A stretch of DNA of 64,000 bases, taken from the NCBI GenBank assembly GCA_945892755.1, contig CAMDDO010000004.1, positions 3,099 through 67,098 of the forward strand, read 5' to 3'. The notes beneath the pieces were generated by a model. That model made no database searches. It was not told the DNA's origin and worked only from the letters and a program-made list of their open reading frames with translations. The position numbers and the translations under genes were made by a program. Origin of the DNA: Rhizobium sp. Q54. Lineage in GTDB: Bacteria; Pseudomonadota; Alphaproteobacteria; UBA828. Position 1 is the first letter of the stretch. Each line of letters starts with the position of its first letter. Shown here in pieces: positions 21,440-60,409 of this stretch.

Positions 21440-22153
21440 ATGAACTTGGTCGTGCTGACCACCGACACATTGCATCACCGCCAATTCGTCCGGGCGGTTC
21501 AAGCCTCGAAGCCGATTGCCCGCGTCTTTGTCGAGACCGAAGCGCGCGCGCGCGCCGGCTTCGAAACCGCGCATCCGTTCGAGACCGCGCGCGAGCGGTA
21601 CGAAGCCCTGCATTGGTTTGGCGGCTCGCCGCCAGCGCTGGCTTCATTGGCGCCGAGCGAATCCTTCTCCAATCTGAATGCGCCGGAAGCCGTGCGGGCG
21701 ATCGCCCAGGCAAAGCCTGACGCGCTCATCGTGTTCGGCACTGGGCGATTGAACGAAGCGATCATCACCCTTTGCCCGGAACGCGCACTCAATCTGCACG
21801 GCGGCAACCCCGAGGATTATCGTGGCCTCGATACGCACCTCTGGGCAATTTATCACGGCGACTTCGCGGCGCTGGTCACCACGCTGCATCGACTCGCTTC
21901 CAAGCTCGATACCGGCGATGTCATCCAGATGCTGCCGCTCCCGCTCGTGCGCGACCTGGCGCTTCATGAGCTGCGCCGCGTCAACACCGATATCTGCGTC
22001 AAGCTCACGCTCGATGCGCTGGCCGAACTCGAACGGAATGGGCGATTTTCCGGCCGTGTGCAGCGCCGTGTCGGGCGCTATTACTCGTTCATGCCCGCTG
22101 TTTTGAAAGCGCTTTGCGTCGAGCGCTTTGCCCGCCATACGAGCCGGCTGTGA
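21440..22153 (+). CDS. formyltransferase-domain protein (Fmt N-terminal-domain-like, putative sugar N-formyltransferase)
   Basis: NLHGGNPEDYRGLDTHLWAIYHGD...TGDVIQ matches the N(I/L)H.SLLP.YRG...H..gD..TG formyl_trans_N core. Confidence 0.6.
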   Translation: MNLVVLTTDTLHHRQFVRAVQASKPIARVFVETEARARAGFETAHPFETARERYEALHWFGGSPPALASLAPSESFSNLNAPEAVRAIAQAKPDALIVFGTGRLNEAIITLCPERALNLHGGNPEDYRGLDTHLWAIYHGDFAALVTTLHRLASKLDTGDVIQMLPLPLVRDLALHELRRVNTDICVKLTLDALAELERNGRFSGRVQRRVGRYYSFMPAVLKALCVERFARHTSRL

Positions 22154-23067
22154 CCGAGCCTGAGCCGCAAACTTATGCGTCGCGCCTCGCGGCCGATGCG
22201 TTGACGATCTTTCTGTTTCACGGCGTCGTCGAGCGGCACGTGCACAAGATACGTAATTACACACGCAAACATATTGCGGCCAGGCGTTTCGCCAGCATTC
22301 TCGAGGCGTTGACAGCCGCTGGCACGGCGGTTTCGCTCGACGACGTGATCAAGATCGCGGCTGGGAAGGGGCGGTTGCCCGCGAATGCGTTCGCAATCAC
22401 CTTCGACGACGGGTTCCGGAACAACTTCACCGTCGCGGCGCCCATACTTGAGGCGAGGCAAATTCCAGCGACCTTCTACCTGACCACGGGATTCGTCGAA
22501 CACAATGGCATGTCGTGGATCGACCGCATCGAATACGCCATCGAATGCGTGCCGCAGGGGCGCGTCGCGCTGCCGGTCGGTGAGCGTGACTATCGAGACG
22601 CGGAAGGCGCGCGAGTCTTGCTCGAAGAAATTCGTACGGTGGTGAAAGCGGATCCTGGTATAGATGCCGACCGCTTTGCGAGTGAGGTGCAGCACGGGCT
22701 CGGCGTGCCCGAAACGCATGGCAGCAACGATCCGCTCGATCAAAAGCTCAATTGGGCCGAGGTTCGTGCCCTCGCGGCCGAAGGGCTGTTTCACGTTGGC
22801 GGACATTCCCACCGTCACGTCAATCTCGCTTTCCTGGACGCGGCGAGCCTCGCTCGCGAGATCGAGACCAGCCGCACACTGCTCGCCGAGCGCGCGGGAC
22901 TTAGCTGCCGGCATTATTCCTATCCCGAGGGGACGCCGAACGCCTATTCCGACACAGTCATCGCGGCGTTGAAGGGCATTGGCGTGCAATGTTGCCCCAC
23001 CGCAGAGGACGGTATCAATCCTCCGCCGTTCGATCTGTTTCGGCTCAAGCGCGTCATGGTGGTGTGA
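22114..23067 (+). CDS. polysaccharide deacetylase (NodB homology domain)
   Basis: AITFDDGFRNNF..ILE...IPATFY..TG. An alternative GTG start at 22150 overlaps the upstream stop. Confidence 0.75.
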   Translation: MRRALCPPYEPAVTEPEPQTYASRLAADALTIFLFHGVVERHVHKIRNYTRKHIAARRFASILEALTAAGTAVSLDDVIKIAAGKGRLPANAFAITFDDGFRNNFTVAAPILEARQIPATFYLTTGFVEHNGMSWIDRIEYAIECVPQGRVALPVGERDYRDAEGARVLLEEIRTVVKADPGIDADRFASEVQHGLGVPETHGSNDPLDQKLNWAEVRALAAEGLFHVGGHSHRHVNLAFLDAASLAREIETSRTLLAERAGLSCRHYSYPEGTPNAYSDTVIAALKGIGVQCCPTAEDGINPPPFDLFRLKRVMVV

Positions 23068-24077
23068 TGAAGCTGTTTGGAAAAGATTTGCCGCGCGAAG
23101 TCGCTATCGTCGCCGAGATCGGCGTCAATCACGAGGGCGATCCCGAAGCGGCGTTGAGGCTCATCAGGCTTGCGGCCGAGGCCGGTGCCGACGCGGTCAA
23201 GTTCCAAAGCTATACGCCGGCGCGTTATGCCGCATCGAACGATGCCGAGCGGCTCGCGCGCGTCGGTCGCTTCGCGCTCGACGAGACGACGCATGAGCGC
23301 CTCGCCGCCGAGGCCAAGGCGCGCGGCATTCACTTCTTTTCCACGCCCTTGAGCGAGGATTGGGTGCCGGTGATTGCGCGCTTGGGCGCGGCGATCAAGA
23401 TCGCGAGCGGCGATCTGACGTTCGAGCCCGTGATTCGTGCCGCCGCGCGCACTGGCAAGCCGGTGATCGTCTCGACCGGGCTCGGCACCGATGAGGAGAT
23501 CGACCGCGCGGTCGGCTGGCTCACGGAGGAAATCGGCGCCGGGCAGCTCGGTGAGCGGGTCGTGTTGCTCCATTGCGTGGTTGCCTACCCGACGCCGATC
23601 GAGGAGGCCAATCTCCTGGCGATCCCGTTTCTCGCCGAGCGCTATCGCGTGCCGATCGGCTATTCCAATCATGTCATGGGGCTCGATGCGTGCTTCGGCG
23701 CGGTTGCGCTCGGCGCCTGCGTGCTCGAGGTCCACGTGACGGATCGGCGCGAGGGCCGCACGTTCCGCGATCATCAATTGTCGCTGCTGCCGGACGAGCT
23801 CGCCGAGCTGGTGCGCCGCACGCCGGGTTTCCGCGCGGCGCGCGGCGGCTTCGGCAAGCCGCGCCAACCGAGTGAGCTCGCGGCCCTGCAGGCCGTGCGA
23901 AAAGGCGTCGTCGCGGCGCGTGATCTTGCGGCCGGCACCGTGCTCGCACGCGACGATCTGATGTATGCGCGGCCGGCGACCGAGTTCGCCGCGAGCGAGC
24001 TTGGCACGCTGATCGGCCGTCGACTCAAGGCGGACCTCAAAAGCGGCATGCTCGTGCCGCGTGGTGGTGTCGCCTAG
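23067..24077 (+). CDS. NeuB/LegI-family nonulosonic acid synthase (N-acylneuraminate-9-phosphate synthase fold + SAF domain)
   Basis: IVAEIGVNHEGD (NeuB-type IAEIGxNHxG motif), PIGYSNH, C-terminal SAF domain. Confidence 0.85.
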   Translation: MKLFGKDLPREVAIVAEIGVNHEGDPEAALRLIRLAAEAGADAVKFQSYTPARYAASNDAERLARVGRFALDETTHERLAAEAKARGIHFFSTPLSEDWVPVIARLGAAIKIASGDLTFEPVIRAAARTGKPVIVSTGLGTDEEIDRAVGWLTEEIGAGQLGERVVLLHCVVAYPTPIEEANLLAIPFLAERYRVPIGYSNHVMGLDACFGAVALGACVLEVHVTDRREGRTFRDHQLSLLPDELAELVRRTPGFRAARGGFGKPRQPSELAALQAVRKGVVAARDLAAGTVLARDDLMYARPATEFAASELGTLIGRRLKADLKSGMLVPRGGVA

Positions 24078-24079
24078 GC

Positions 24080-25903
24080 ATGTGCGGGATTGCCGGCGTA
24101 ATCGCCGCCGCGCCGCCCGATCCGGCGCGCGTGCGCGCGGCGCTTGCGACCATGAAACAGCGCGGACCCGATGCCGAGGGCGTGCATCAGGGCCGGCTCG
24201 GCAATCATGCCGTCACGCTCTTGCACACGCGACTCTCGATCATCGATCTCGATCCGCGCGCCAATCAGCCCTTCGTGCGCGATGGGCTCGCGCTTAGCTA
24301 TAATGGCGAGCTCTATAATTACCTCGAAGTGCGCGCCGCGCTCGAAGCGCTTGGCCATCGCTTCACCACGCAATCCGATACCGAGGTGCTCATCGAGGCC
24401 TATCGCGCCTGGGGCGAGGCGTGTCTCAACCGCTTCGAGGGCATGTGGGCGTTCGCGCTGCTCGACGAGGCGAAGGGAAGGCTGTTCCTGAGCCGCGACC
24501 GCTTCGGCGAGAAGCCGCTTTATACGATGCGGAAGGATGGCGCGCTTTATTTCGCCTCCGAAGTGAAGGCGCTGGCCGCGCTCGCCGGCTCATGGCCCGC
24601 GCCCGATCGCGCGCAAATCAGGCGCTATCTGGTGAACGGCTATAAGGCGCTCTACAAACAACCGGCGAGCTGGTTCGAGGGCGTGCGCGAGCTGCCGGCG
24701 GCGCATTATGCCGCGATCACCGAGCCGCTCAGGGTCGAGCCCAAGCGCTATTGGAGGCTCAGCTATTCGCCCGAGGCCATGTCGCTCGCCGACGCGCGGG
24801 ATGGCGCGCGCGAGCGCCTGTTCGAGGCGGTGAAACTGCGTCTTCGCGCCGACGTGCCGATCGCGTTTTGTCTGTCCGGCGGCATCGATTCGAGCGCGCT
24901 CGCCGGCATCGCGGCCAAGCATTTCGGGCAAGAGCTGCACGCCTTCTCGGTGGTCGATTCCGATCCGCGCTATGACGAGCGCGACAACATGACCGCGACG
25001 GTCGATTTTCTGGGCTGCGCGCATCATGTCGCTCATACCTCGACCGAAGGCTTCTTCGACCGGCTTGACCGCCAGATCGCCTATCACGACGCCCCGGTCG
25101 CCACCATCACCTATTACATGCACGCCTTCCTTTCCGAGGCGATTCACCAAGCGGGCTTCAAGGTGGCGATCTCGGGCACCGCGGCCGATGAGATGTTCAC
25201 CGGCTACTACGACCATTATGGCTTCTGGCTCGCCGAGATGAGCGCGCGGCGGGATTTTCCCGCGCTGCTCGACGATTGGCGCGGGAGTTACGGCCGATAT
25301 GTCCGAAACCCGGTGCTGCAAGACCCGCTCGTCTTCCAAAACAACCCCGATGAGCGCGGTCATATTTTTCTCAATGCCGAATTGTTCACCGGTTTTCTGG
25401 CCGCGCCGTTCGACGAGGGCTTCGAGGAAGCGCCCTATGGCGACAACCTCTTGCGCAAGCGCATGCTGAACGAGCTGTTCCACGAGTGCGTGCCGGTCAT
25501 CCTGCACGAGGACGATCTGAATTCGATGATGGTCTCGGTCGAGAATCGCTCGCCCTATCTCGATCGCGCGCTGACCGAGTTTCTGTTCCGCGTGCCGGCC
25601 GAACACCTGATCAAGGATGGCTATGTCAAGTTCCTGCTGCGCGCGGCGGTCGACGGGCTGGTGCCGGATTCGGTCCGGCTCGACAAGAGGAAGCGCGGCT
25701 TCAACGCCTCGATCGATTCATTGATCGACAGAAAAAACCCGGACACGCGCGCGCGGCTGCTCGATGGCAGCCCGATTTTCGATCTGGTGCGGCGCGAGGC
25801 GGTCGAACGCTTTCTTGACGCCGATATGACCGATAACTCGTTCTCGAAATTCCTGTTCAGCTTCGTCTCGGCCAAGATCTTCATGGACCGGCACGCGGCC
25901 TGA
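24080..25903 (+). CDS. asparagine-synthetase-family (AsnB-like) glutamine amidotransferase
   Basis: MCGIAG N-terminal nucleophile and SGGIDSS PP-loop. Typical of PseA-like amidotransferases in nonulosonate loci. Confidence 0.85.
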   Translation: MCGIAGVIAAAPPDPARVRAALATMKQRGPDAEGVHQGRLGNHAVTLLHTRLSIIDLDPRANQPFVRDGLALSYNGELYNYLEVRAALEALGHRFTTQSDTEVLIEAYRAWGEACLNRFEGMWAFALLDEAKGRLFLSRDRFGEKPLYTMRKDGALYFASEVKALAALAGSWPAPDRAQIRRYLVNGYKALYKQPASWFEGVRELPAAHYAAITEPLRVEPKRYWRLSYSPEAMSLADARDGARERLFEAVKLRLRADVPIAFCLSGGIDSSALAGIAAKHFGQELHAFSVVDSDPRYDERDNMTATVDFLGCAHHVAHTSTEGFFDRLDRQIAYHDAPVATITYYMHAFLSEAIHQAGFKVAISGTAADEMFTGYYDHYGFWLAEMSARRDFPALLDDWRGSYGRYVRNPVLQDPLVFQNNPDERGHIFLNAELFTGFLAAPFDEGFEEAPYGDNLLRKRMLNELFHECVPVILHEDDLNSMMVSVENRSPYLDRALTEFLFRVPAEHLIKDGYVKFLLRAAVDGLVPDSVRLDKRKRGFNASIDSLIDRKNPDTRARLLDGSPIFDLVRREAVERFLDADMTDNSFSKFLFSFVSAKIFMDRHAA

Positions 25904-27027
25904 TGCGTTATTGCACGCGCTGCATTCTGCCCGACACGCGGCCCGGCATCACGCTCGATGGTTCAGGCGTGTGTTCGGCCTGTCGCGGCCATGACGACAA
26001 GGAACATCGCATCGATTGGGCGGCGCGGCGCGCGGCGTTCGAGCGCCTCGTGGCGGAGACCAAGGCGCACAACGCCGCCTATGACTGCGTGGTGCCGGTC
26101 TCGGGCGGCAAGGATAGCTGGTATCAAGTGATCACCGCGCGGCGCCACGGCCTGAAGCCGCTCGGCGTGACTTGGAAGCCGCCCGGGCGAACTCCACTCG
26201 GGCAAAAAAATCTCGATGCCATGATCGCCGCGCTCGGCATCGATCATATCGACTACACGATCTCGCCCGACATCGAGCGGCGTTTCATGAAAGCCGCGTT
26301 CGAGCGCAAGGGCGCCTCGGCGATCCCGATGCACATGGCGCTGTTCGCGATTCCAATTCGGCTCGCCACGCAATTCGGTATTCCGCTCATGGTCTGGGGC
26401 GAAAACCCGCAACTCGAATTCGGCGGCGCGGAGGCTGATCGGCTCGCCACTGATCTCGACCTCGACTGGGTGCGCCGCCATGGCGTGACCAACGGCACCG
26501 CGGTCGATGATTGGATCGGCGCCGAAGGCCTCGGCGTCGAGGATCTCGCCGCCTTTCGTCTGCCAGCGGCCGATTCGTTCAAATCGGGCGTGCGCTCGAT
26601 CTTCCTCGGGTCTTATTTCAAATGGAGCAGCTTCGAAAACGCGCGCCTCGCCGCCGAGCACGGCTTCACGCTGGGCGACGCGCCGGCGACGGGGGCGTGG
26701 AACTTCGCCGATCTCGACGACCGCTTCATCTCGATCCATCACTTTCTCAAGTGGCACAAATTCGGCCTGACGCGCGCCTTCGATAATCTCTCCGTGCAAA
26801 TCCGCTTCGGCCGGACGACGCGCGACGAGGCGATCAAGACGCTGAGGTCTCTCGGCGTGCAGGAGCCGCGCGAGGATATCGAGGCGTTTTGCGAATTCGT
26901 GCGGCAACCGCTTCCTTGGTTCCATGAGATCGCCGAGCGCCACCGCAATCCGGCGATCTGGCAAAAGCGCGGCAATAATTGGGTGATCGACGGCTTCCTG
27001 ATCGAGGATTGGGACTGGTCGCAATGA
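25903..27027 (+). CDS. N-acetyl sugar amidotransferase (WbuX/LPS-biosynthesis PP-loop family)
   Basis: N-terminal CxxC...CxxC zinc ribbon (CTRCILPDT...GVCSAC) and PP-loop VPVSGGKDSWYQ. Confidence 0.75.
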   Translation: MRYCTRCILPDTRPGITLDGSGVCSACRGHDDKEHRIDWAARRAAFERLVAETKAHNAAYDCVVPVSGGKDSWYQVITARRHGLKPLGVTWKPPGRTPLGQKNLDAMIAALGIDHIDYTISPDIERRFMKAAFERKGASAIPMHMALFAIPIRLATQFGIPLMVWGENPQLEFGGAEADRLATDLDLDWVRRHGVTNGTAVDDWIGAEGLGVEDLAAFRLPAADSFKSGVRSIFLGSYFKWSSFENARLAAEHGFTLGDAPATGAWNFADLDDRFISIHHFLKWHKFGLTRAFDNLSVQIRFGRTTRDEAIKTLRSLGVQEPREDIEAFCEFVRQPLPWFHEIAERHRNPAIWQKRGNNWVIDGFLIEDWDWSQ

Positions 27028-27821
27028 GTGAGGCCTGCCCGATGTGCGACGGCGCGGCGCTTGCGCTCCTTCATCGGTTCGACGCGCGGCCCGAGGGCGA
27101 AAACGATTTCGGCTTCATGCCCTATCGGCGCGAATTATGGCGCTGCGGGGCCTGCGGGCATGTCATCAACCGGCATGATTTTCCGCTCGATCGGCTCTAT
27201 GCCGCGAGCTATGTCGACGCGGTCTATGGCGCGCGCATGGAACAGGATTTCGCGCGCATCATGGCGTTGCCGCCCGAGCGCTCCGACAATCGCCAGCGCC
27301 TGAATCGCGTCGAGGCCTATGTCGCGGCGCGCGGCCCCGGCCTGCCGCGCCGCGCGCTCGATGTCGGCGCGGGCCTCGGCGTGTTTCCCGCCGCGCTCGT
27401 CGAAGCGGGATGGGACTGCCTCGCGATCGACCCCGACCCGCGCGCGACCGCCCATATCGAGACGCATACGCGCGCCACGGCGCGCTGCGGCGATTTCGCC
27501 GCTTTGCCGCCCGAGCGGCGCTTCGCGCTGGTGAGTTTCAACAAGGTGCTCGAGCATGTGCGCCCGATGGTCACGATGCTCGCGCGCTCGAAGGAGTGGC
27601 TGTTGCCCAGGGGTCTCGTCTATGTCGAATTGCCCGATGGCGAAGCCGCGCTCGAGGCCGGCCCCGCGCGCGAGGAATTCTTCGTCGAGCATTTTTGCGC
27701 CTTCAGCCTGGCGTCCTTCGCGCTGCTCGCCTTGAAGGCGGGCTTTCGCGCCGAGCGCGTGGAGCGCATTCGCGAGCCGAGCGGCAAATACACGCTCTTT
27801 GGGTTTCTGTCGGCGGCATGA
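27024..27821 (+). CDS. class I SAM-dependent methyltransferase with N-terminal Cys4 zinc ribbon
   Basis: CPMCDG...CGACGH, then a LDVGAGLGVF glycine-rich SAM motif. Confidence 0.7.
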   Translation: MSEACPMCDGAALALLHRFDARPEGENDFGFMPYRRELWRCGACGHVINRHDFPLDRLYAASYVDAVYGARMEQDFARIMALPPERSDNRQRLNRVEAYVAARGPGLPRRALDVGAGLGVFPAALVEAGWDCLAIDPDPRATAHIETHTRATARCGDFAALPPERRFALVSFNKVLEHVRPMVTMLARSKEWLLPRGLVYVELPDGEAALEAGPAREEFFVEHFCAFSLASFALLALKAGFRAERVERIREPSGKYTLFGFLSAA

Positions 27822-36702: not shown

Positions 36703-36745
36703 TTCCTTTCGCGCCAATCGATGCGTCCCTCCAAGAGATTACGTC

Positions 36746-49284: not shown

Positions 49285-49553
49285 TGGCACCTCCGCGGGA
49301 AGAAGTACGGCGAACTCTCGTCGATATATTCGTCACGGTTCTCGGCCTTCCGGAATCCGCAATCAGGGACGGGCTCTCGCCGGACAATTGCACGACGTGG
49401 GATTCGCTCCGCCATATCCAGCTGTGCACTGCGATCGATCAAAGCTTCGGCATTGCGCTCGATATCGCGCAGCAGGTCGAGATGCTGAATTTCGGCTTGG
49501 CGCTCGATACGGTGCTCCGCGCGCTGGAGCCGGCCGGTCCGAGGGAAAGGTGA
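49278..49553 (+). CDS. acyl carrier protein
   Basis: 91 aa, acidic, with DSL phosphopantetheine attachment motif (WDSLRHIQL). Confidence 0.65.
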   Translation: MLVAPPREEVRRTLVDIFVTVLGLPESAIRDGLSPDNCTTWDSLRHIQLCTAIDQSFGIALDIAQQVEMLNFGLALDTVLRALEPAGPRER

Positions 49554-53847: not shown

Positions 53848-54593
53848 TGGGCAAGACCGTCGCGATCATCCAGGCGCGCATGACCTCGAGCCGCCTACCC
53901 GGCAAGGTGCTGGCCGATCTCGGCGGCAAGCCGCTGATCGAGCGCATGATCGCGCGCGTGCGCCGCGCCCGCGCGCTGGACGCGATCTGGCTCGCTACCA
54001 CCGCCAAGACGACCGACGATCCGCTCGCGACCTTGTGCGACCGGCTCGGCGTACCCGTTCATCGCGGCGATGAGCATGATGTTCTGGCGCGCTTTCTCGG
54101 CGCCGCGCGGGCCGCCGAGGCCGATATCGTGGTCCGGCTCACGGCGGATTGTCCGATGAGCGACCCGGCGCTGATCGACGAGATCGTCGCCGATTATGGG
54201 AAGGGTGGCGCCGATTACGTCTCCAACGTGTTGGTGCGCACCTATCCCGATGGCCTCGACGTCGAGGTATTTTCATGCGCCGCGCTCGAAGACGCGGCGG
54301 CCAACGCGACGGAGCCGTTTCATCGCGAGCACGTCACGCCCTGGTTGCAAACCGGCTTTCGGCCCGGCTTGGCGACCGGGCGCTTTCGCGTGCGTCATGT
54401 CGTGAACGACATCGATCTCGGCGTCATGCGTTGGACGGTCGATGAGGCCGAGGATCTCGACTTAATTCGAAAGTTGTTCGCGGCCCTGCCCGAGGGCTTC
54501 GCCTGGCGCGACGCGCTCGCGCTGGTCAGCGTCAATGGCGAATTGGCCCGCCGCTCGCGCGTGCCCGAGGCTTATCTGAAGGCGGCGTCATGA
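53847..54593 (+). CDS. pseF: pseudaminic acid cytidylyltransferase-family protein (copy 3 of SpsF/PseF-like)
   Basis: VAIIQARMTSSRLPGKVL, directly after pseI. Confidence 0.7.
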   Translation: MGKTVAIIQARMTSSRLPGKVLADLGGKPLIERMIARVRRARALDAIWLATTAKTTDDPLATLCDRLGVPVHRGDEHDVLARFLGAARAAEADIVVRLTADCPMSDPALIDEIVADYGKGGADYVSNVLVRTYPDGLDVEVFSCAALEDAAANATEPFHREHVTPWLQTGFRPGLATGRFRVRHVVNDIDLGVMRWTVDEAEDLDLIRKLFAALPEGFAWRDALALVSVNGELARRSRVPEAYLKAAS

Positions 54594-56377
54594 AGGTCCG
54601 AGCGGTCATATGCGAGGACGCCGAGCGGCTCTTCGCCTGGTTGAACGCGCCCGATCGGCAAGCGGCGAGCCTGGCGACGAACGCGCCGGTCGCTTGGGCC
54701 GATCATCTGGCGTGGCTCGAGGCCCGGCTCGACGATCCGTGTAGCGCGCTCTGGATGGCGGAGATCGACGACAAGCCGGTCGGCCAGGCGCGATTGCAGT
54801 GGGTGGAGCCCGGGCTCGAAGTTTCGCTCTATGTCGCGCCTGAGGCACGCCGGCAGGGTGTCGGCCGCGCGTTGCTCAATCACGCGGCGCGGGCCGGGGC
54901 GCGTCTTTGGCCGGGCCGGGCGCTGCGTGCCAAGGTGCGTCCCGAGAACGCGGACTCGCTCGCGCTATTTCATCGCGCGGGCTATCGGGAAATCGCGCGC
55001 CCGCCCGATCATGTTTTGCTGAGCCTCGACCCCGCGCTCGATAACATGCCAATGCCAGCGCGCCGGTTCGGGCGTTCGCTCGCGCTGCATCAACGCGCGC
55101 TCGACACCATCCCGACCGGCTCGCAGACCTTCTCGAAATCGTCGTGGAATTTCGTCAAGGGCGCGACGCCTTTGATGCTCGAGCGCGGCGTGGGCGCGCG
55201 CGTGTGGGATGTGGACGGCAATGACTATGTCGATCATGTGCTTGGCCTGCTCGCGATCGTGCTCGGCTATCGCGATGCGACGGTCGATGGCGCGATCCGC
55301 GCGCAACTTGAGCGCGGCATCTCGTTCTCGCTCGCGACCGAGCTCGAAGCCGCGCTGGCCGAGCGCCTGCGCGCGCTCATTCCCTGCGCTGAAATGGCGC
55401 GCTTCGGCAAGAACGGGTCGGATGCCACCTCTGGGGCGGTTCGCCTCGCGCGCGCCCATACCGGGCGCGACAAGATCGCGTTGTCGGGCTATCACGGCTG
55501 GCATGATTGGTATATCGGCACCACCGCGCGCCGGCTCGGCGTGCCCGACGCGGTCCAGGCGCTTTCGACCAGCTTTCCCTTCAACGACGCCGATGCGCTT
55601 GAGCGGCTCTTGGTCGCCGAACCGAACGCCTATGCCGCGGTCATTCTCGAACCCGCCGGTATCGAGGCGCCGGCGCCAGGCTTTCTCGAACGCGTGCGCG
55701 CGCTGACCGAGCGTTTTGGCGTGGTCTTGGTATTCGACGAGATCATCACCGGCTTTCGCGTCGCGCTCGGCGGCGCGCAAAAGCATTACAATGTAGTGCC
55801 CGATCTCGCCTGTGTCGGCAAGGCGATGGGCAATGGCATGCCGATCTCGGCGGTGGTCGGTCGCAAGGCGATCATGCGGCGCATGGAGGATATCTTCTTC
55901 TCCGGCACGTTCGGCGGCGAGACGCTCTCGCTCGCCGCCGCGCTCGCCACCATCGATGCGCTCGAACGCCAAGACGGCATCGCGCGGATGCACGCGCTTG
56001 GCGCACGATTGCGCGCTGCGCTTGGCGCTCTCTTGACGCGGCATGGGCTGAGCCAGGCATTCAAGGCGACCGGTCCCGATTGGTGGCCGCGCCTCGCCGT
56101 CATGCCCGACGAGCGTACGCCGGGGCCCGTTCTGCAAAGCTTGATGCAACAGGAATTGGCCGAGGACGGTGTCCTGATCGGCGCCGGGCTCACGCTCAAC
56201 CTCTGCCTCGCCCACGATCACCCGGCGATCGAGGCGATGACGCTCGCGTCCTTCGATCGCGCCATGGCGCGCTGCGCCGAGGCGTTGGCGCGGCCCGATC
56301 CGGCGACGGCGCTACGCGGCGAACCCATCCGGCCGATCTTCCAGGTGCGGCCGATCCGACCGGCGACGCGCGCCTGA
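54590..56377 (+). CDS. GNAT acetyltransferase :: class-III aminotransferase (glutamate-1-semialdehyde aminomutase/HemL-like) fusion
   Basis: N-terminal ~140 aa GNAT (RRQGVGRALL). C-terminal FGKNGSDATSGAVRLARAHTGRDKI, VFDEIITGFRV, DLACVGKAMGNGMPISAV match the HemL family. Confidence 0.8.
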   Translation: MKVRAVICEDAERLFAWLNAPDRQAASLATNAPVAWADHLAWLEARLDDPCSALWMAEIDDKPVGQARLQWVEPGLEVSLYVAPEARRQGVGRALLNHAARAGARLWPGRALRAKVRPENADSLALFHRAGYREIARPPDHVLLSLDPALDNMPMPARRFGRSLALHQRALDTIPTGSQTFSKSSWNFVKGATPLMLERGVGARVWDVDGNDYVDHVLGLLAIVLGYRDATVDGAIRAQLERGISFSLATELEAALAERLRALIPCAEMARFGKNGSDATSGAVRLARAHTGRDKIALSGYHGWHDWYIGTTARRLGVPDAVQALSTSFPFNDADALERLLVAEPNAYAAVILEPAGIEAPAPGFLERVRALTERFGVVLVFDEIITGFRVALGGAQKHYNVVPDLACVGKAMGNGMPISAVVGRKAIMRRMEDIFFSGTFGGETLSLAAALATIDALERQDGIARMHALGARLRAALGALLTRHGLSQAFKATGPDWWPRLAVMPDERTPGPVLQSLMQQELAEDGVLIGAGLTLNLCLAHDHPAIEAMTLASFDRAMARCAEALARPDPATALRGEPIRPIFQVRPIRPATRA

Positions 56378-57282
56378 TGGACGAGCCTCGCCCGACCTGG
56401 CTCAGCCTCGGCACGGCCGGGCTCGGCATGGATTACGGCGTTGTCGCGCCGACCAGGCAACCTTCCGATGCGACGGCGCACGCATTGCTTGAGCGCGCCT
56501 GGGCCCTCGGTATTCGCTCGATCGACACCGCGCGCGCCTATGGCGAGGCCGAGGCTCGCATTGGGTCGTGGAGTGGGCGTTCGGGGAATCGGCCCTTCAT
56601 CGTGACCAAGATTCCCGCCCTCCCTGACAACGGCGGCGAACGCATCATCGAGCAATCGCTGCAGGCCTCACTCGCGGCGTTGCGCGCCGATCGGGTTGAG
56701 CTCTGCCTGCTGCACCGCGCGGGTGACCTCCATCGACCCGGCATCGCCGCCAAACTGCGTGAGATTGCCAGCAATGACCTCATCGGCGGTTTCGGTGTAT
56801 CCATCTATGAAGGCGCTGAGATTGAAGCAGCCCTCAGTATTGAAGGGCTCGCCGCGGTTCAGGCGCCGGTCAGCCTCTTGGACCGCCGGCTTGTCGAGTC
56901 GGGAGTGCTGGGGCGGGCCAAGGCGCGTGGCGTTCTCGTTTTCGCGCGCAGCGTGTTTCTCCAGGGGGCCTTGTTTGTCGCTCCAGAAAAATTGCCCTCG
57001 TTCCTCCGCCCGCTCGCCGAACCCTTGTCGCGCTTGACCACGCTTGCCGAGAGCTCGGGCGTCTCACCCATGGCCTTGTCACTTGCCTATTTGCGCGCAA
57101 GCGGCGTGATCGACTCGCTGGTGATCGGCGCGACGACATCCGAAGAGCTCGAAGCGGATGTGCGGCTGGCGAACCAATCCTTAGACCCAGAGCTGATTGA
57201 AAGGGCGTGCGCCATCGTACAGATCGTTGACCCTGCCTGCCTCGACCCGCGCCGCTGGCCGGCGTCGATCGCCGTCCCATGA
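56377..57282 (+). CDS. aldo/keto reductase
   Basis: LDTARAYG, AKR TIM-barrel layout. Confidence 0.8.
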   Translation: MDEPRPTWLSLGTAGLGMDYGVVAPTRQPSDATAHALLERAWALGIRSIDTARAYGEAEARIGSWSGRSGNRPFIVTKIPALPDNGGERIIEQSLQASLAALRADRVELCLLHRAGDLHRPGIAAKLREIASNDLIGGFGVSIYEGAEIEAALSIEGLAAVQAPVSLLDRRLVESGVLGRAKARGVLVFARSVFLQGALFVAPEKLPSFLRPLAEPLSRLTTLAESSGVSPMALSLAYLRASGVIDSLVIGATTSEELEADVRLANQSLDPELIERACAIVQIVDPACLDPRRWPASIAVP

Positions 57283-57316: not shown

Positions 57317-60300
57317 ATGCGATCAAACATGAAGACGAATTTGACGCCCCTGCCGCCCGAAGTCCGAAACATGTCGATTCCGTCCGCCGATGTGCTTGGT
57401 CGGCTGGTCTATGTCGTCGGCAGCGCGCGCGGCGGTACCACCATGCTCGGCGAATGTGTCGCACTCCACGATCGCATTCTCGCTTTGCCGGAGAACAGTA
57501 ATTTTCTCGGCCAAGTCTGGCGTTATGCGCGCAAAGTGGACGACCGCATGCTACGCCTGCTCATCGCGCAGCCGCGTTACTATAAGCGGCGAGAAGCGAT
57601 GGCACGGCTTGGCGACAGCGCGGGTCGCGCGCTTCTGGGTCACATTACGCGCTTGGTCAGGCAACGCGACCTCGCCGGCCTCTACACGCTGTACCCGATC
57701 GTCCATGCGCTTGTCGGCGAGGAAGGTCGCGATATCGGCGCGCTCCGTGCCTGGGCAGACAAAGCGACGGATACCAGGGGCCTAGGCGCGCTCGAGCGGG
57801 CCTTCCCCGAGCTTCGCGTCGTCTTTATCGTGCGTGACCCGAGAGCCTGCGTCGCTTCTTTGACGGCGAGAGCCTTCGCACGCGAGGCGCGCGAGCAGGG
57901 GTCCGACCGGCTCGACCTCCTCGTGGACCAGGCCCTTCATTGGCGCCGGGTAACCCAGGACATGCTTCACCATGCGCGCCGTCTTGGCTCGCGCGCCATT
58001 ACAGTGCGCTACGAAGATTTCGTTCGAGAGCCGGTCGAGCAGCTTAACCGTATCTTCGAGTTCGCCGTCGGCGAGAGACTATCGGCCGCCGAGCTGGAAC
58101 GGCAGCTCGGCGGTATCCCTTATTTCGCCAGCGCCAGCGGCGGCGCCTGCGCGACAGGCATCAGGACCGACTCGATCGACCGCTGGCGTAAGACCCTGCA
58201 GGACGATGAGCAGGGCCTGATCGAGGCGCTCTGCGGGCGCCTCGCGCGCCAACTTGGTTACGACACGTCCTCGGTCTCGCCGCTCGTCACGGCAGTTCGA
58301 CTGGGCCGAGTCGAGCAGTCACGCCGGCAAAAGCTCCTTGCTTTCGCCAGACTCGGCTATCTGGCTATCAGCGTGCCGATCAAGCTCCGAAGCCCGCTTC
58401 GGGCCGACACGTTCGCCATGCTGCCTTTGCCCGATCGAAAGCCGCGCCCGGCCGAGCAACCTCAGCCACCACGAAATGTCCGTGAGTCGAGCCCGGTGTC
58501 GCCCGCCGCTCCGCCGCCCGAAACGGCGGCTCGCGAACGCCCGTCTATCCGTCGGATCTTGGACTTTGCTAACGATATCGGATTGCCCCGAGCCCGCGTC
58601 GCCGTCCTCCTGCTGTTTCATTTGGTCGGAACTTTGTTCGAGAGTTTCGGTCTTGGCATGTTGCTGCCGGTCTTTGATCTAATCCAGAAAGGCGGCGACG
58701 CGTCCGCGCTTGCGGCACAGTCGAGCCTTTGGCGCGTGATCGTTGGCGTCTATGGCGCCTTCGGGCTCGACGCTAGCCTGCTGGCGCTACTGATTACGAG
58801 TTTCCTTGCCATCTTGGCGCGCCAGGCGATGTTTTATGTCCGGATGCTCTACACCGCAAGGGCATCCCTCGCAATTGGGCGCACCATCCGGACACGTGTG
58901 TTTGGCGGTATCCTTGGCGCACGCTTGGCGGTTCTTGAAGGCGATCGGCGCGGTCATATTTTGAACGACATCACGACCGAGGCCGATCGAACCACGCAAT
59001 ATGCCATCAGTGTCATTGCGCTGGGCGGCCATCTGGTTTTGGGATTGGTCTATTTCGTCATGATGCTGCTGCTGTCGCCATCGATGACCGGCGCCGCAGT
59101 CGCCGTCCTGGCGGTCGCCGCCCTGCCGGCGGTACGGTTGACGCGGCATTCCGCGACGGTGAGCCGCGACATCGTCGATGCCAATCGCGCGCTAATCGAC
59201 TTCTTCGCCCAGCGATTAAGTGCCATTCGTTTCGTTCGGCTCAGTGGCGCCGAGACCGCCGAACGGGCGGAGCTCGACCGTCGAGTGACCCGTCAGAACA
59301 AGCGCGTCTATCAAAGCAACGTACTGCTTGCCCGCACCAAGGTGGTGATCGAGCCGATCGTTGTTGCCGCAGCTTTCGTCTTCCTGTTTGTCGGATATTC
59401 CGTGTTTGGTGTCGGCCTCGAAGAGCTCGGGCTGTTCTTACTAATCCTGCTCCGATTGGTGCCAGTCATGCGCGAGGTAATGATCTTGCGTAGTGGCATG
59501 GCGCTGACTCGACATAGTCTAGTGACGCTGCAGCGTCGTTTCAGCGCGCTGGATCAGTCTCCCGAGGACGCGGGCGGCACGCGTGCGCTTGGCGTGCTCC
59601 GCCAAGGCATCCGCTTTGAGCACGTATCGTTCAGCTATGGGACCACCGCCGCGCCCGCGCTTAATGACGTCAGCGTGACCCTACCTGCGCGGCGCTTGAC
59701 CGCCCTGGTCGGTCCCTCGGGCAGCGGCAAGTCGACCTTGATCGATTTGTTGCCGCGCTTGCGCGAGCCGACCGGGGGCGTCGTGCTGTTCGATGGCATC
59801 CCCGCGTCGGAGTTTTCGTTACAGAGCCTTCGCGCGGGGATCGCCTATGCGCCGCAATCGCCGCAACTGTTCGATACCACGGTCATTGAGCATATCCGCT
59901 ATGGTCGGCCTGACGCGAGCGTTGCCGACATTGAACAGGCGGCCCGGCATGCGGGCGCTCATGATTTCATCGCCGCCCTGCCAATGGGCTATGAGACCAG
60001 GCTTGGCGAGAGCGGTGGTTTGCTTTCGGGCGGGCAGCGCCAGCGCGTCGATCTCGCGCGCGCGCTGGTCAAGAACGCGAGCGTGCTCATTCTCGACGAG
60101 CCGACCAGCCAGCTCGACGCCGAATCGGAGGAAATCTTCAAGGCCAGCATTCGGCGCCTTCGTGACGCCGGCCAGCACACGATCGTCATGGTCGCGCATC
60201 GCCTGTCGACCGCGGCGATTGCCGATCAAATCGTCGTCCTGATCCGGGGCTGTGTCGTCGATGTCGGATCGCACCGCGAATTGCTGGTGCGTGGCGGCTG

Positions 60301-60409
60301 GTATGCCGAAGCCAACCGCCTACAGCAGAATGACAATTTCGGAGAGCTTGGTGCTTCGGCGGAATTTGGCGGCGCGGCCGGCATTGGCCGAGGCCGTCCG
60401 TTTCTATAG
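57317..60409 (+). CDS. sulfotransferase :: ABC exporter (6 TM + ATPase) fusion protein
   Basis: N-terminal 5'-PSB VVGSARGGTTML and 3'-PB RDPRACVAS PAPS-binding motifs, Pro-rich linker, TM domain. Then Walker [36 protein letters not shown]. Confidence 0.8.
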   Translation: MRSNMKTNLTPLPPEVRNMSIPSADVLGRLVYVVGSARGGTTMLGECVALHDRILALPENSNFLGQVWRYARKVDDRMLRLLIAQPRYYKRREAMARLGDSAGRALLGHITRLVRQRDLAGLYTLYPIVHALVGEEGRDIGALRAWADKATDTRGLGALERAFPELRVVFIVRDPRACVASLTARAFAREAREQGSDRLDLLVDQALHWRRVTQDMLHHARRLGSRAITVRYEDFVREPVEQLNRIFEFAVGERLSAAELERQLGGIPYFASASGGACATGIRTDSIDRWRKTLQDDEQGLIEALCGRLARQLGYDTSSVSPLVTAVRLGRVEQSRRQKLLAFARLGYLAISVPIKLRSPLRADTFAMLPLPDRKPRPAEQPQPPRNVRESSPVSPAAPPPETAARERPSIRRILDFANDIGLPRARVAVLLLFHLVGTLFESFGLGMLLPVFDLIQKGGDASALAAQSSLWRVIVGVYGAFGLDASLLALLITSFLAILARQAMFYVRMLYTARASLAIGRTIRTRVFGGILGARLAVLEGDRRGHILNDITTEADRTTQYAISVIALGGHLVLGLVYFVMMLLLSPSMTGAAVAVLAVAALPAVRLTRHSATVSRDIVDANRALIDFFAQRLSAIRFVRLSGAETAERAELDRRVTRQNKRVYQSNVLLARTKVVIEPIVVAAAFVFLFVGYSVFGVGLEELGLFLLILLRLVPVMREVMILRSGMALTRHSLVTLQRRFSALDQSPEDAGGTRALGVLRQGIRFEHVSFSYGTTAAPALNDVSVTLPARRLTALVGPSGSGKSTLIDLLPRLREPTGGVVLFDGIPASEFSLQSLRAGIAYAPQSPQLFDTTVIEHIRYGRPDASVADIEQAARHAGAHDFIAALPMGYETRLGESGGLLSGGQRQRVDLARALVKNASVLILDEPTSQLDAESEEIFKASIRRLRDAGQHTIVMVAHRLSTAAIADQIVVLIRGCVVDVGSHRELLVRGGWYAEANRLQQNDNFGELGASAEFGGAAGIGRGRPFL

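Follow-up and report, generated by a model that had tools for sequence, protein, structure and literature searches.

Surface polysaccharides built on derivatives of pseudaminic acid (Pse) occur in alphaproteobacteria, as in the case of the Sinorhizobium rkp-3 K-antigen region, whose product carries a 3-hydroxybutyryl N-substituent; this region was reportedly studied by Kiss et al. in 2001. Rhizobial K-antigens are exported by a KpsMT-type system (rkpRST) together with the rkp-1 lipid-carrier genes, and KpsC-type enzymes act on lipid acceptors. Other nonulosonate loci are more composite. The flagellar glycosylation locus of Campylobacter jejuni (Cj1293-Cj1342) joins the pathways for Pse and legionaminic acid (Leg) and also holds an FkbH-domain gene (PMC7099621). 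In the case of Legionella pneumophila Sg6/Sg12, the O-antigen cluster contains a GNAT, PseG, a class-III 'GSA aminomutase', an acylneuraminate cytidylyltransferase, a WbuX-like protein and an aryl-alcohol dehydrogenase (PMC3694923). Here we compare with these systems a locus within a 64,000-nt stretch of DNA (the window) from an uncultured alphaproteobacterium.

Organization of the cluster

Gene content, family assignments, gene intactness, modularity and recurrence were established with Pfam and NCBIfam profiles, applying the NCBIfam equivalog cut-offs, and by comparison with homologous loci. A preliminary description of this DNA had announced a 39-kb co-directional cluster of about 37 genes. 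The co-directional run is indeed present at 21440-60409, all on the + strand and about 99.7% coding, but it holds 35 intact genes, because one ORF had been read in the wrong frame (true position 32941-33297) and an ACP-like ORF at 49278-49553 had to be added. Neighbouring genes overlap at 21 of the 34 junctions, 17 of these by exactly 1 or 4 nt. The largest intergenic gap measures 50 nt, at the junction of modules B and C, and no terminator enrichment was found within the 35-gene cluster.

The inventory comprises two NeuB synthases with SAF domains, three CTP_transf_3 cytidylyltransferases, three DegT aminotransferases, two Gfo/Idh/MocA oxidoreductases, one extended SDR, five GNAT domains and one ABC exporter. 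Annotation of every gene thus bore out most of the classes claimed before, including the second synthase, the three cytidylyltransferases, the second and third DegT genes and both Gfo genes. All ORFs agree in length with their homologues, and paralogues within the cluster share 25-39% identity. No pseudogene was found among the listed genes, and the additional copies of NeuB, DegT, Gfo and cytidylyltransferase are intact and under purifying selection, in line with the earlier view that the locus holds far more than a single CMP-Pse pathway needs. The preliminary description did not list the two AsnB-like amidotransferases, the WbuX amidotransferase, the formyltransferase and deacetylase, the TylF methyltransferase, FkbH with its probable ACP, the MaoC-SDR gene or the GNAT/class-III aminotransferase fusion.

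Module C, the pseudaminic acid pathway

Profile matches identify the genes of module C (g21-g33) as a bona fide Pse pathway. As had been claimed, the canonical set is present, each member scoring above its equivalog cut-off: the inverting UDP-GlcNAc 4,6-dehydratase PseB (g21, 41449..42522; TIGR03589, 514 bits against 408), the aminotransferase PseC (g22, 42548..43771; TIGR03588, 464 against 423.5), the UDP-sugar hydrolase PseG (g29, 51770..52789; TIGR03590, 206 against 154) and the pseudaminic acid synthase PseI, the second NeuB (g30, 52786..53847; TIGR03586, 475 against 340). The PseF role would fall to the SpsF-like cytidylyltransferase 3 (g31, 53847..54593; PF02348, 108 bits). Assignment of g31 to the TIGR03584 type was rejected at 22 bits against a cut-off of 206.

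Several genes between and after these enzymes point to acyl supply and tailoring. Following g23 (43768..45744), which has a GT-B fold and belongs to a rare family without characterised members, g24 (45741..46328; PF13302 Acetyltransf_3, 57 bits) is the conserved GNAT N-acyltransferase of the Pse module, with counterparts of 60-65% identity in the metagenome-assembled (MAG) loci L003, L004 and L037. A MaoC hydratase-SDR reductase fusion for hydroxyacyl supply (g25, 46325..47512; PF01575, PF13561) precedes an FkbH-domain protein of the glyceryl-ACP loading type (g26, 47509..49284; TIGR01686, 270 bits, above the cut-off of 147). The 91-residue g26b (49278..49553) is a probable acyl carrier protein, with a WDSL motif and a sub-threshold PP-binding match (E 0.034), and the same three MAG loci have an ORF of 86-87 residues at this position after FkbH. 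After the TylF-type O-methyltransferase (g27, 49558..50232; PF05711, 63 bits) comes an uncharacterised, widespread all-beta protein (g28, 50249..51751), whose position is always downstream of TylF. Furthermore, g32 (54590..56377; PF00583, PF00202; PRK06209, 358 bits, below cut-off) fuses a PseH-equivalent GNAT to a class-III, GSA-aminomutase-like aminotransferase. Its GNAT domain is homologous to the one fused to PseG in L004 and L037, and the counterpart of its aminotransferase domain is fused to a cytidylyltransferase in L003, L004, L037 and L038. An aldo/keto reductase (g33, 56377..57282; PF00248, 98 bits) ends the module.

Module A and the divergent synthase

Module A (g01-g13) opens with a formyltransferase (g01, 21440..22153; PF00551 Formyl_trans_N, 38 bits), called identically in the independent assemblies L001 and L005, and a CE4 polysaccharide (N-)deacetylase (g02, 22150..23067; PF01522, 71 bits) that overlaps it by GTGA. 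The divergent NeuB-family ulosonic-acid synthase with SAF domain, NeuB#1 (g03, 23067..24077; PF03102, 204 bits), had been called NeuB/LegI-type. Its place in the NeuB family holds; the LegI label goes too far, as the protein scores 260 bits against the 400 cut-off of TIGR03569 (NeuB_NnaB) and the cluster has no LegG, LegX or recognisable 4,6-dehydratase to go with it. With the PseI model it scores 198 bits. It shares 37% identity with PseI, retains the equivalents of the metal-binding His residues, the Lys and Arg314 of NmNeuB, and has orthologues in 27 genomes, with dN/dS of about 0.08 against the 92%-identical one in L009.

The first AsnB-like glutamine-dependent amidotransferase (g04, 24080..25903; TIGR01536, 393 bits, above the cut-off of 267), of a type that adjoins the NeuB#1 orthologue in 12 of the 27 loci, is followed by a WbuX/PseA-type N-acetyl sugar amidotransferase of the kind that forms acetamidino groups (g05, 25903..27027; TIGR03573, 306 bits, above 203), a SAM methyltransferase (g06, 27024..27821; PF13489, 65 bits; start at 27024 or, as the gene caller has it, 27042) and a WecD-like GNAT N-acetyltransferase (g07, 27818..28570; PF00583; PRK10975, 68 bits, below cut-off). 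Next come Gfo/Idh/MocA oxidoreductase 1 (g08, 28570..29571; PF01408, PF02894, PF22725) and DegT aminotransferase 1 (g09, 29571..30731; PF01041, 389 bits; with the PseC model, 299 bits against a cut-off of 423). The gene described before as an extended-SDR dehydratase/epimerase (g10, 30739..31845; PF01370, 136 bits) remains an extended SDR, of the epimerase/reductase type: SSSTVYG and YANGK give the S/T-Y-K epimerase/reductase signature, and the dehydratase part fell away on inspection, the TDE motif being absent. The SpsF-like cytidylyltransferase 1 (g11, 31827..32552; PF02348 CTP_transf_3, 92 bits), with its start set to take in the first strand LGLVVFAR, precedes two small proteins. No family was found for g12 (32539..32916), which has an orthologue after cytidylyltransferase 1 in P. 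marisnigri (L019); g13 (32941..33297; GC3 0.83) is its tandem paralogue by inspection after frame correction. The alternative frame 32928-33305 gave a low-complexity translation that is not protein-like. Profile annotation of the whole cluster found no LegG/NeuC, LegX/PtmE, recognisable 4,6-dehydratase or recognisable NDP-sugar hydrolase for module A. Because LegG, LegX and such a dehydratase are all missing, it is not a canonical Leg module.

Module B, transferase candidates and exporter

Module B (g14-g20) holds a second AsnB-like amidotransferase (g14, 33312..35147; PF00733, 154 bits; TIGR01536, 207 bits, below cut-off), the GT-B-like proteins g15 (35152..36702) and g19 (39817..40872), cytidylyltransferase 2 (g16, 36692..37555; PF02348, 90 bits), Gfo/Idh/MocA oxidoreductase 2 (g17, 37552..38535; PF01408, 41 bits), DegT aminotransferase 2 (g18, 38535..39800; PF01041, 306 bits) and a GNAT (g20, 40859..41398; PF13302 Acetyltransf_3, 75 bits), a gene call confirmed in L002. 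In L041 the position of g17 is occupied by a cytidylyltransferase-Gfo fusion. Three cytidylyltransferases stand against two synthases, which leaves one cytidylyltransferase without a partner synthase.

The transferase roles of g15, g19 and g23 come exclusively from remote comparison. Three KpsC/KpsS/TagF-like transferases had been proposed. A partial KpsC likeness was retained for g15, while g19 and g23 are GT-B-like only. With Pfam, neither Capsule_synth (KpsC/KpsS) nor any TagF family matched a cluster gene above threshold. The distantly KpsC-like g15 has a VKEHP motif and a sub-threshold PF05159 match (E 0.0095), a domain that some members of its family carry; the family profile matched PDB KpsC with an E of 3.8e-6 over about 73 residues, and g15-like genes recur with the Pse module and an ABC exporter in L040 and L041. 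The relationship to KpsC is significant but partial, and g15 is a candidate CMP-ulosonic acid transferase. In the case of g19, which has a VKFHP motif, hhalign to the g15 family gave an E of 9e-5 (probability 59%), and its 30%-identical homologue in L041 has a sub-threshold Epimerase_2 match; it may be a transferase or an analogue of NDP-sugar hydrolases/2-epimerases. By its generic GT-B fold, g23 is a candidate glycosyltransferase.

The exporter noted before was found as a single ABC half-transporter fused to an N-terminal sulfotransferase (g34, 57317..60409; PF13469, PF00664, PF00005). Its TMD and NBD are MsbA/PglK/HepA-like (the HepA and MsbA models match it at about 325 bits, less than their cut-offs), and it alone among the cluster proteins has TM helices. 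Among 1.84 billion representatives at 50% identity, just one other carries the fusion. Profile annotation found no KpsM/T, KpsD/E, Wzm/Wzt, Wzx/Wzy, WaaL, initiating transferase or polymerase of a known family in the cluster. On this gene content, the polymer suggested in the preliminary description, after the manner of a rhizobial K-antigen or a Legionella-type O-chain, is not supported in the form proposed.

Recurrence of the modules

The modules recur both separately and together. The NeuB#1 module is kept in about 20 alphaproteobacterial genomes, and the module of Pse genes, TylF, g28 and cytidylyltransferase-aminotransferase in L003, L004, L036, L037, L038 and L040. In MAG OZ244984.1 the NeuB#1 and Pse modules lie 2.5 Mb apart. 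Conversely, L041, from a different organism, repeats the three-module order of the window (A-B-exporter-C) at 45-66% identity.

The MAG loci L003, L004, L037, L038, L040 and L041, from Alphaproteobacteria and others, have in common a core of PseB-PseC-g23-GNAT-MaoC/SDR-FkbH-ACP-TylF-g28-cytidylyltransferase/aminotransferase. Like the window, they also have an MsbA-like exporter and a g15-like protein, with a stand-alone sulfotransferase in L003; some have a LegX-like NTP transferase, which the window lacks. Acyl-supply genes differ by locus: the window has FkbH/ACP/MaoC-SDR, L038 and L040 have KAS III/ACP/PhyH, and L041 has AMP-binding/ACP. The fusions, which link steps, differ as well (cytidylyltransferase-aminotransferase, PseG-GNAT and cytidylyltransferase-Gfo in the MAG loci, GNAT-aminotransferase and sulfotransferase-ABC in the window).

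Proposed product and alternative explanations

Because the synthase modules are conserved independently, lie 2.5 Mb apart in one genome and recur in the same order in L041, the best reading, and a well-supported one, is that the locus directs the synthesis of two distinct nonulosonic acids, one of the two options given in the preliminary description, and that both bear heavy N-acyl decoration. For the whole, we lean slightly towards one operon-like chromosomal locus of three fused modules, predicted to make and deploy at least two CMP-nonulosonates. All substrates and the sequence of reactions are our inference, as are the acceptor and the coupling of sulfation to export. In module C, PseB and PseC would convert UDP-GlcNAc to a 4-amino-6-deoxy sugar, to be N-acylated by a GNAT, either with acetyl through the N-domain of g32 or, through g24, with a glyceryl/hydroxyacyl group that FkbH, ACP and MaoC-SDR provide. 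PseG would then remove UDP, PseI carry out the condensation with PEP and cytidylyltransferase 3 activate the product. TylF would O-methylate, and g28, the AKR and the class-III aminotransferase may add further tailoring. In module A, NeuB#1 would form the second ulosonic acid, with C-4 amination by Gfo, DegT and GNAT instead of the 4,6-dehydratase route. WbuX with the first AsnB would add the acetamidino group, N/O-methylation would follow, the deacetylase/formyltransferase pair may exchange acetyl for formyl, and cytidylyltransferase 1 would activate the product. The second cytidylyltransferase/Gfo/DegT/GNAT cassette of module B, which carries two GT-B-like proteins, could give a further variant. 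In the cytoplasm g15, g23 and perhaps g19 would use the CMP-sugars to glycosylate an acceptor other than flagellin, in all likelihood a glycolipid or a lipid-linked glycan, and the sulfotransferase domain of g34 would sulfate this product and its fused ABC module export it. Weighing against this scheme are the cytidylyltransferase left over without a synthase, the missing NDP-sugar hydrolase of module A, the lack of an initiating transferase, of a known-family polymerase and of the Kps, Wz and WaaL components, the ambiguity of g19, and the maf and flagellin genes beside the NeuB#1 module in cultured relatives.

An island for O-glycosylation of flagellin or another protein, supplying only CMP-nonulosonates, with exporter and sulfotransferase serving another purpose and attachment either by a Maf/FlmG whose gene lies outside the locus or by g23, which would then be a new protein glycosyltransferase, seems to us unlikely. 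It has precedent in the C. jejuni locus (PMC7099621), and Maf (PF20157 + PF01973) directly adjoins the NeuB#1 module in 7 of 27 loci and flagellin in 6 of 27, including those of the cultured Rhodospirillales Paramagnetospirillum marisnigri and Marivibrio halodurans. This setting, which had not been considered before, speaks for attachment of the NeuB#1 sugar to protein. Nevertheless, maf, an FlmG-like TPR-GT and flagellin are absent from the whole 64-kb window, the orthologues nearest to its NeuB#1 (62-92% identity) have no maf within 10 kb, and the repeated companions of the Pse module are an MsbA-like exporter and a KpsC-like protein, not flagellar genes, in loci where neither maf nor flagellin was found. 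We give still less weight to a small amphiphile, that is, a sulfated N-acyl nonulosonate glycolipid, secreted or membrane-inserted in the manner of a natural product and pumped by the sulfotransferase-ABC protein, with no polysaccharide. The acyl-supply genes vary among loci as is typical of variable acyl tails, the sole transporter is of the MsbA lipid/amphiphile type and KpsC-type enzymes use lipids as acceptors, but the presence of three GT-B candidates together with two or three activated sugars points to a glycan of more than one residue.

Slightly less probable again is a single hyper-decorated nonulosonate, already offered as an alternative in the preliminary description, with Pse as the sole quantitative backbone and NeuB#1 and modules A and B representing redundancy, phase-alternative isoforms or tailoring of CMP-Pse. 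[quoted passage not shown] Against this stand the low identity of the two synthases and the strong purifying selection on NeuB#1, whose module moreover stands alone in many genomes without any Pse genes and must therefore make its own backbone there. Finally, it is very improbable that unrelated loci lacking a shared product came to lie side by side by chance or through assembly. The modules are separate in other genomes and the source is a metagenome assembly; however, translationally coupled overlaps run along the whole length with just the short gap between B and C, the independent assemblies L001, L002 and L005-L007 bear out this junction and the left flank, and L041 keeps the module order.

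Comparison with known systems

Like the window, the C. jejuni locus combines Pse with a second nonulosonate pathway and two NeuB-family synthases (10.1101/2022.03.25.485807), as well as a PseA/WbuX-type amidotransferase (acetamidino) and an FkbH-domain gene with acyl-carrier machinery. Of the two, only the C. jejuni locus has flagellin and maf genes and the canonical Leg pathway through GDP-linked sugars (LegB/C/H/G/I/F, PtmE), whereas the window, with no maf, flagellin, LegG or LegX, alone has the Gfo/DegT cassettes, the GT-B/KpsC-like proteins and the sulfotransferase-ABC exporter. Regarding export, the KpsMT-type (rkpRST) and rkp-1 genes of rhizobial K-antigens were not found in the cluster. 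By analogy, however, the MaoC-SDR gene could be the source of an rkp-3-like hydroxyacyl group. In the case of the KpsC/KpsS beta-Kdo transferases (GT107/GT99, Capsule_synth), the g15 family profile aligns with the KpsC nucleotide-binding region including K-x-H-P, but no KpsS, KpsMT or KpsDE partner accompanies g15, which itself lies below the Pfam threshold.

The L. pneumophila LPS O-antigen clusters (the legionaminic acid homopolymer of Sg1 and the Sg6/Sg12 variant) have Wzm/Wzt, WecA and NeuC, none of which was found in the window. They are nonulosonate-centred envelope loci as well, with acetimidoyl and methyl tailoring in both, and the Sg6/Sg12 set of GNAT, PseG, class-III aminotransferase, cytidylyltransferase, WbuX-like protein and aryl-alcohol dehydrogenase has its counterpart in the window (PMC3694923). 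Altogether, the cluster introduces no new principle and is an elaborate form of a surface-sugar locus of an already known sort.

Organization and integrity of the cluster

Listing of open reading frames, refinement of starts and family scans yielded an uninterrupted run of 35 genes on the + strand at positions 21440-60409, here numbered g01 to g34 from left to right with an additional g26b. The co-directional arrangement noticed in the preliminary description was thereby confirmed. The coding fraction of the cluster is about 99.7%; 21 of the 34 gene junctions overlap, 17 by exactly 1 or 4 nt, and the widest intergenic gap measures 50 nt, at the junction of g20 with the PseB gene. Scans for internal promoters and terminators gave no more matches in the cluster than background. 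Three modules can be distinguished, namely A (g01-g13), B (g14-g20) and C (g21-g33), followed by an exporter gene (g34).

The window originates from a metagenome-assembled alphaproteobacterium. The left flank up to g08, and the stretch from g19 to g26, were also recovered in independent assemblies (L001, L002, L005-L007). The upstream flank contains pyrB, two EamA genes, gatCAB, three glutathione S-transferase (GST) genes and a SET-domain gene, as well as genes for an aldehyde dehydrogenase, a solute importer, a LysR protein and a Rieske oxygenase. The GST genes lie in tandem downstream of gatCAB (9048-11099), and the bacterial SET-domain protein (PF00856; 11965-12948, - strand) is encoded beside the aldehyde dehydrogenase and the solute ABC importer. 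In the case of GatC, the longest reading frame (5405-6034) encodes 209 aa with the GatC domain confined to residues 135-204, and translation probably begins well 3' of the first start codon. Downstream of the cluster there are a convergent fatty-acid desaturase gene and PrpD. The desaturase gene (60404-61402, - strand) terminates 6 nt within the 3' end of g34, and therefore leaves no space for a terminator belonging to the cluster itself.

Regarding the origin of the cluster, acquisition as a horizontal island found no compositional support: GC content gave no island signature (about 0.61-0.68 throughout the cluster, with the flanks alike), and the flanks consist of core genes (pyrB, gatCAB, GSTs, prpD). 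Decay of the additional genes into pseudogenes, raised as a possible objection in the preliminary description, does not hold either: all reading frames are intact and have lengths matching their homologues, and NeuB#1 (g03), the divergent NeuB-family synthase of module A, shows a dN/dS of 0.08 against a 92%-identical orthologue from a related metagenome-assembled genome (MAG). Paralogue pairs within the cluster share only 25-39% identity, so none of them is a recent duplicate.

The pseudaminic acid branch

Module C comprises PseB, PseC, g23 (658 aa), a GNAT (g24), a MaoC-SDR fusion, an FkbH-domain protein (270 bits, cut-off 147), an ACP-like reading frame of 91 aa with a WDSL motif, a TylF methyltransferase, g28 (500 aa), PseG, PseI, cytidylyltransferase 3, a fusion of a GNAT with a class-III aminotransferase, and an aldo/keto reductase. 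Based on equivalog models this branch is canonical for four steps, which are the inverting UDP-GlcNAc 4,6-dehydratase PseB (g21; TIGR03589, 513.8 bits, cut-off 407.75), the aminotransferase PseC (g22; TIGR03588, 464.3 bits, cut-off 423.5), the UDP-sugar hydrolase PseG (g29; TIGR03590, 206.3 bits, cut-off 153.55) and the synthase PseI (g30; TIGR03586, 475.5 bits, cut-off 340.25).

Two further roles could be assigned to candidates. None of the GNATs of the cluster matched the PseH equivalog model. The probable holder of the PseH role is the N-terminal GNAT domain of g32, a homologue of the GNAT that forms a fusion with PseG in loci L004 and L037 of other genomes; g24 is a conserved alternative. 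The putative PseF role falls to g31, the third cytidylyltransferase, which is SpsF-like (CTP_transf_3, 108 bits; the PseF model TIGR03584 gives only 21.6 bits against a cut-off of 205.7) and is located immediately 3' of PseI.

The remaining enzymes of module C concern decoration. A glyceryl or hydroxyacyl group on nitrogen is suggested by FkbH with the ACP, the MaoC-SDR fusion and the conserved GNAT g24, and its O-methylation by TylF. Sugars of the Pse/Leg type are known to carry N-glyceroyl, N-hydroxybutyryl, N-formyl and N-acetimidoyl groups (PMC5378307), and the C. jejuni locus likewise holds an FkbH-domain gene (PMC7099621).

A second, non-canonical NeuB branch

Module A encodes a formyltransferase, a CE4 deacetylase, NeuB#1, an AsnB-like amidotransferase, a WbuX N-acetyl-sugar amidotransferase (306 bits, over its cut-off), a methyltransferase, a WecD-like GNAT, a Gfo oxidoreductase, a DegT aminotransferase, an extended SDR (g10), the SpsF-type cytidylyltransferase 1, and g12 and g13. 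The latter two (32539-32916, 125 aa; 32941-33297, 118 aa) are tandem small paralogues of unknown family following cytidylyltransferase 1, and an orthologue is found at the equivalent position in Paramagnetospirillum marisnigri (L019). For g13 the frame 32928-33305 was dropped in favour of 32941-33297, and for cytidylyltransferase 1 the start at 31857 in favour of 31827.

In the case of NeuB#1, the synthase aligns over its full length with N. meningitidis NeuB and retains counterparts of the two metal-binding histidines, of the lysines and of Asp247 and Arg314; the sole substitution among the checked positions is Glu134 to Asp. By score, it is nearer to the TIGR03569 model (260.6 bits, below the cut-off of 399.65) than to the PseI model (198 bits). 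The enzymes preceding a Leg synthase were searched for individually. LegG/NeuC (Epimerase_2, PF02350) had no match in any of the 35 genes, and tblastn of the NeuC from L039, a nonulosonate locus on a Rhizobium plasmid, was negative in the window. No NTP_transferase/CBS protein corresponding to LegX/PtmE occurs in the cluster, and tblastn with the LegX-like proteins of L003 and L039 was negative in the window; this GlcN-1-P guanylyltransferase has been proposed as a marker of the Leg pathway (10.1101/2022.03.25.485807). Regarding the 4,6-dehydratase LegB, g10 reaches only 64.6 bits on TIGR04180 (cut-off 475), lacks the TDE motif and carries an SDR motif of the epimerase/reductase type instead of the dehydratase type. 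A canonical Leg assignment of NeuB#1 was therefore rejected, as the cluster lacks LegG, LegX and LegB. The previous suggestion, one of two options, that the cluster makes two different sugars is supported, and its label 'LegI-type' for the second synthase is too specific in view of the sub-threshold score and the missing LegG, LegX and LegB.

As to what the branch would do instead, Gfo, DegT and GNAT may aminate C-4, WbuX and AsnB may install an acetamidino group, and the methyltransferase together with the deacetylase/formyltransferase pair may carry out further tailoring. A recent study of Magnetospirillum gryphiswaldense found CMP-NulOAcAm and methylated derivatives, as well as CMP-linked C10 keto-acids and CMP-HexNAc-like species not described before, apparently with no genes assigned to them (10.64898/2026.04.20.719630). 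The connection of these CMP-sugars to the NeuB#1 branch is only circumstantial.

Distribution and joining of the modules

A scan of the genome collection with NeuB#1 gave 27 loci, with orthologues of 55-68% identity throughout Alphaproteobacteria. Cultured carriers include Paramagnetospirillum marisnigri, Marivibrio halodurans, Hwanghaeella, Pacificispira and Ferrovibrio. Synteny by tblastn defined the conserved unit as NeuB#1-AsnB-WbuX-(formyltransferase)-methyltransferase-GNAT-Gfo-DegT-SDR-cytidylyltransferase-g12.

A further set of loci, from other MAGs, was reached through the families of g23 and g28; they have PseB-PseC-g23-GNAT-MaoC/SDR-FkbH-ACP-TylF-g28 in common. After g28, these loci continue with a fusion of cytidylyltransferase and class-III aminotransferase and with a PseG/GNAT fusion, and an MsbA-like exporter is usually present. 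One of them, L003, has a stand-alone sulfotransferase adjoining a Capsule_synth-like gene. In the MAG OZ244984.1, the NeuB#1 module and the Pse module are separated by 2.5 Mb. They are therefore independent units, joined in the window. This joining is not unique to the window, as it recurs in L041, a locus from a different organism (45-66% identity) with the same order of module A, module B, ABC exporter and Pse module.

A repeated cassette and enzyme fusions

Module B consists of a second AsnB-like protein, g15 (516 aa), cytidylyltransferase 2, Gfo 2, DegT 2, g19 (351 aa) and a GNAT. A unit made of an SpsF-type cytidylyltransferase, a dehydrogenase (Gfo or AKR), an aminotransferase (DegT or class III) and a GNAT is present in three copies in the cluster. 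In relatives, parts of this unit are fused: in module B of L041 (6562-8346) cytidylyltransferase and Gfo form a single 594-aa protein, and in four loci the cytidylyltransferase is fused to the class-III aminotransferase (L003, 19075-21132; L004, 18126-20195; L037, 11551-13620; L038, 11550-13637). The partner of the GNAT differs, being PseG in the fusions of relatives and the class-III aminotransferase in the window. Because of the cytidylyltransferase fusions, we suggest that part of the tailoring takes place on the CMP-sugar.

Candidate transferases and uncharacterized proteins

The g23 family is rare (22 matches, every one hypothetical). Its confident AlphaFold model (pLDDT 88) shows a GT-B fold, and a direct sequence search of the PDB found nothing. 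Foldseek ranks CalG3, WaaG and MshA first, and the name 'TagF-like', given to it previously, consequently lacks specific support: nothing beyond the common GT-B fold speaks for membership in TagF. By hhalign, g23 is unrelated to the g15 family.

In the case of g15, the match to Capsule_synth (KpsC/KpsS, PF05159) reaches 15.9 bits, below the 20-bit cut-off, and the profile of its family (13 members) matches KpsC of the PDB over 73 residues of the K-x-H-P nucleotide-binding region (E 3.8e-6). In L040 and L041, relatives of g15 stand beside the exporter and the Pse genes; the plasmid collection gave two matches only, both distant and partial. On the Rhizobium sp. WL3 plasmid NZ_CP042825.1 (L039), four hypothetical proteins of about 450-510 aa are encoded in tandem at 621533-627382, one of them distantly g15/KpsC-like. 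This is an annotated nonulosonate polysaccharide locus with a NeuB-family gene, neuC, two cytidylyltransferases, WbuX/WbuZ/HisH and an ABC permease/ATPase pair.

The protein g19 aligns weakly to the KpsC-matching region of the g15 family (E 9e-5), its homologue in L041 has a sub-threshold Epimerase_2 match, and a direct PDB search returned chance-level matches only (E 0.025-0.17). These similarities are compatible with a transferase, or with the NDP-sugar hydrolase/epimerase that is otherwise lacking. The family of g28 (50249-51751) is large and highly conserved: at least 618 homologues, all unannotated, are spread over Alphaproteobacteria, Elusimicrobiota and Planctomycetota at about 50% identity, and none occurs in the plasmid collection. 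It is always encoded directly downstream of the TylF methyltransferase and has many invariant His, Asp and Asn positions. Its confident model is all-beta, with fold matches to generic beta-sandwich domains only, and the PDB sequence search gave a single chance-level match (E 0.06).

Exporter and destination of the product

The last gene, g34 (57317-60409), encodes a protein of 1030 aa in which a Sulfotransfer_3 domain is fused to an MsbA/HepA/PglK-like ABC half-transporter (ABC_membrane and ABC_tran). It alone among the proteins of the cluster has transmembrane helices. Among 1.84 billion representatives, the sulfotransferase domain has 40 close relatives (E < 1e-30), and the fusion occurs in one other representative only, P0158 (1008 aa, 68% identity); the other close relatives, of about 350 aa each, consist of the sulfotransferase alone. 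Our literature search found no described system combining sulfotransferase, ABC transporter and nonulosonate.

Flagellin glycosylation is what the NeuB#1 unit serves in bacteria where Maf and flagellin genes flank it: Maf adjoins the unit in 7 of the 27 loci (L019, L021, L022, L024, L025, L026, L035) and flagellin genes do so in 6. Within the 64-kb window, neither Maf (PF20157 with PF01973) nor FlmG (TPR with GT-B) next to flagellin genes was found, and no maf lies within 10 kb of the closest NeuB#1 orthologues. A polymer resembling a rhizobial K-antigen or a Legionella O-chain had been proposed as well. The analogy with Legionella gains partial support, as the O-antigen clusters of L. pneumophila Sg6/Sg12 are likewise annotated with PseG, class-III aminotransferase, cytidylyltransferase and aryl-alcohol dehydrogenase (PMC3694923); regarding Wzm/Wzt and WecA, no ABC-2 permease or WecA family match occurs in the cluster, and tblastn with the L039 Wzm was negative and with its Wzt gave only a generic ABC ATPase outside the cluster. 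KpsM/KpsT and KpsD/KpsE are absent from the cluster too, where g34 is the sole transporter and no other membrane protein is encoded. Nothing in the cluster demonstrates polymerisation, and the defining K-antigen and Wzm/Wzt O-antigen machinery is missing from it.

The pattern across the loci favours a sulfated lipid-linked glycan or glycolipid, built in the cytoplasm, over flagellin glycosylation, because maf and flagellin genes are lacking, KpsC-like and GT-B proteins constantly accompany an MsbA/PglK-type exporter, and the sulfotransferase is fused to the exporter. The cluster also indicates that the NeuB module used by cultured Rhodospirillales for flagellin glycosylation has been re-deployed here in a non-flagellar setting. 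In Marivibrio halodurans (L021), a TPR/GT41-like (FlmG-like) gene and a Maf gene (5944-8001, 7548-9986) precede the NeuB#1 module beside two flagellin genes, and the FlmG-like and Maf classes of flagellin nonulosonate transferase may coexist in this organism.

A possible joint reading and wider implications

These elements can be combined into one scheme, which we consider unlikely as a whole. Herein, the thrice-repeated cassette would turn a hydroxyl into an additional acylamino group on the CMP-activated sugar, and the NeuB#1 route would need neither a 4,6-dehydratase nor an NDP-sugar hydrolase. The products would be new ulosonic acids outside Pse, Leg and Neu, e.g. triamino or 9-hydroxy-5,7-diamino sugars; other options are the undescribed CMP-linked C10 keto-acids or CMP-HexNAc-like species recently reported for Magnetospirillum (10.64898/2026.04.20.719630). 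The GT-B families of g15, g19 and g23 would assemble these sugars, and the sulfotransferase-ABC fusion would export the sulfated glycolipid. If true, this would constitute a class of envelope glycoconjugate so far undescribed.

Surface identity, recognition by phages and by the immune system, and motility of bacteria depend to a large extent on nonulosonic acids such as Pse, Leg and their relatives. To our knowledge, the enzymes that diversify them (N-acyl exchange, acetamidino, methyl and extra amino groups) and the transferases that use them mostly lack assignment. Here, one operon brings together almost every known type of nonulosonate decoration enzyme, and domain fusions hint at which of them work consecutively. 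The cluster thus supplies candidates for tailoring at the level of the CMP-sugar, for nonulosonate transfer by KpsC-like enzymes and for export coupled to sulfation, and contains three conserved uncharacterised families (g23, g28 and g12/g13).

Compared with known systems, large combined nonulosonate loci have been described before, for instance in C. jejuni. What is distinctive here is the fusion of three modules, the non-canonical NeuB branch, the three uncharacterised families and the nearly unique sulfotransferase-exporter fusion.
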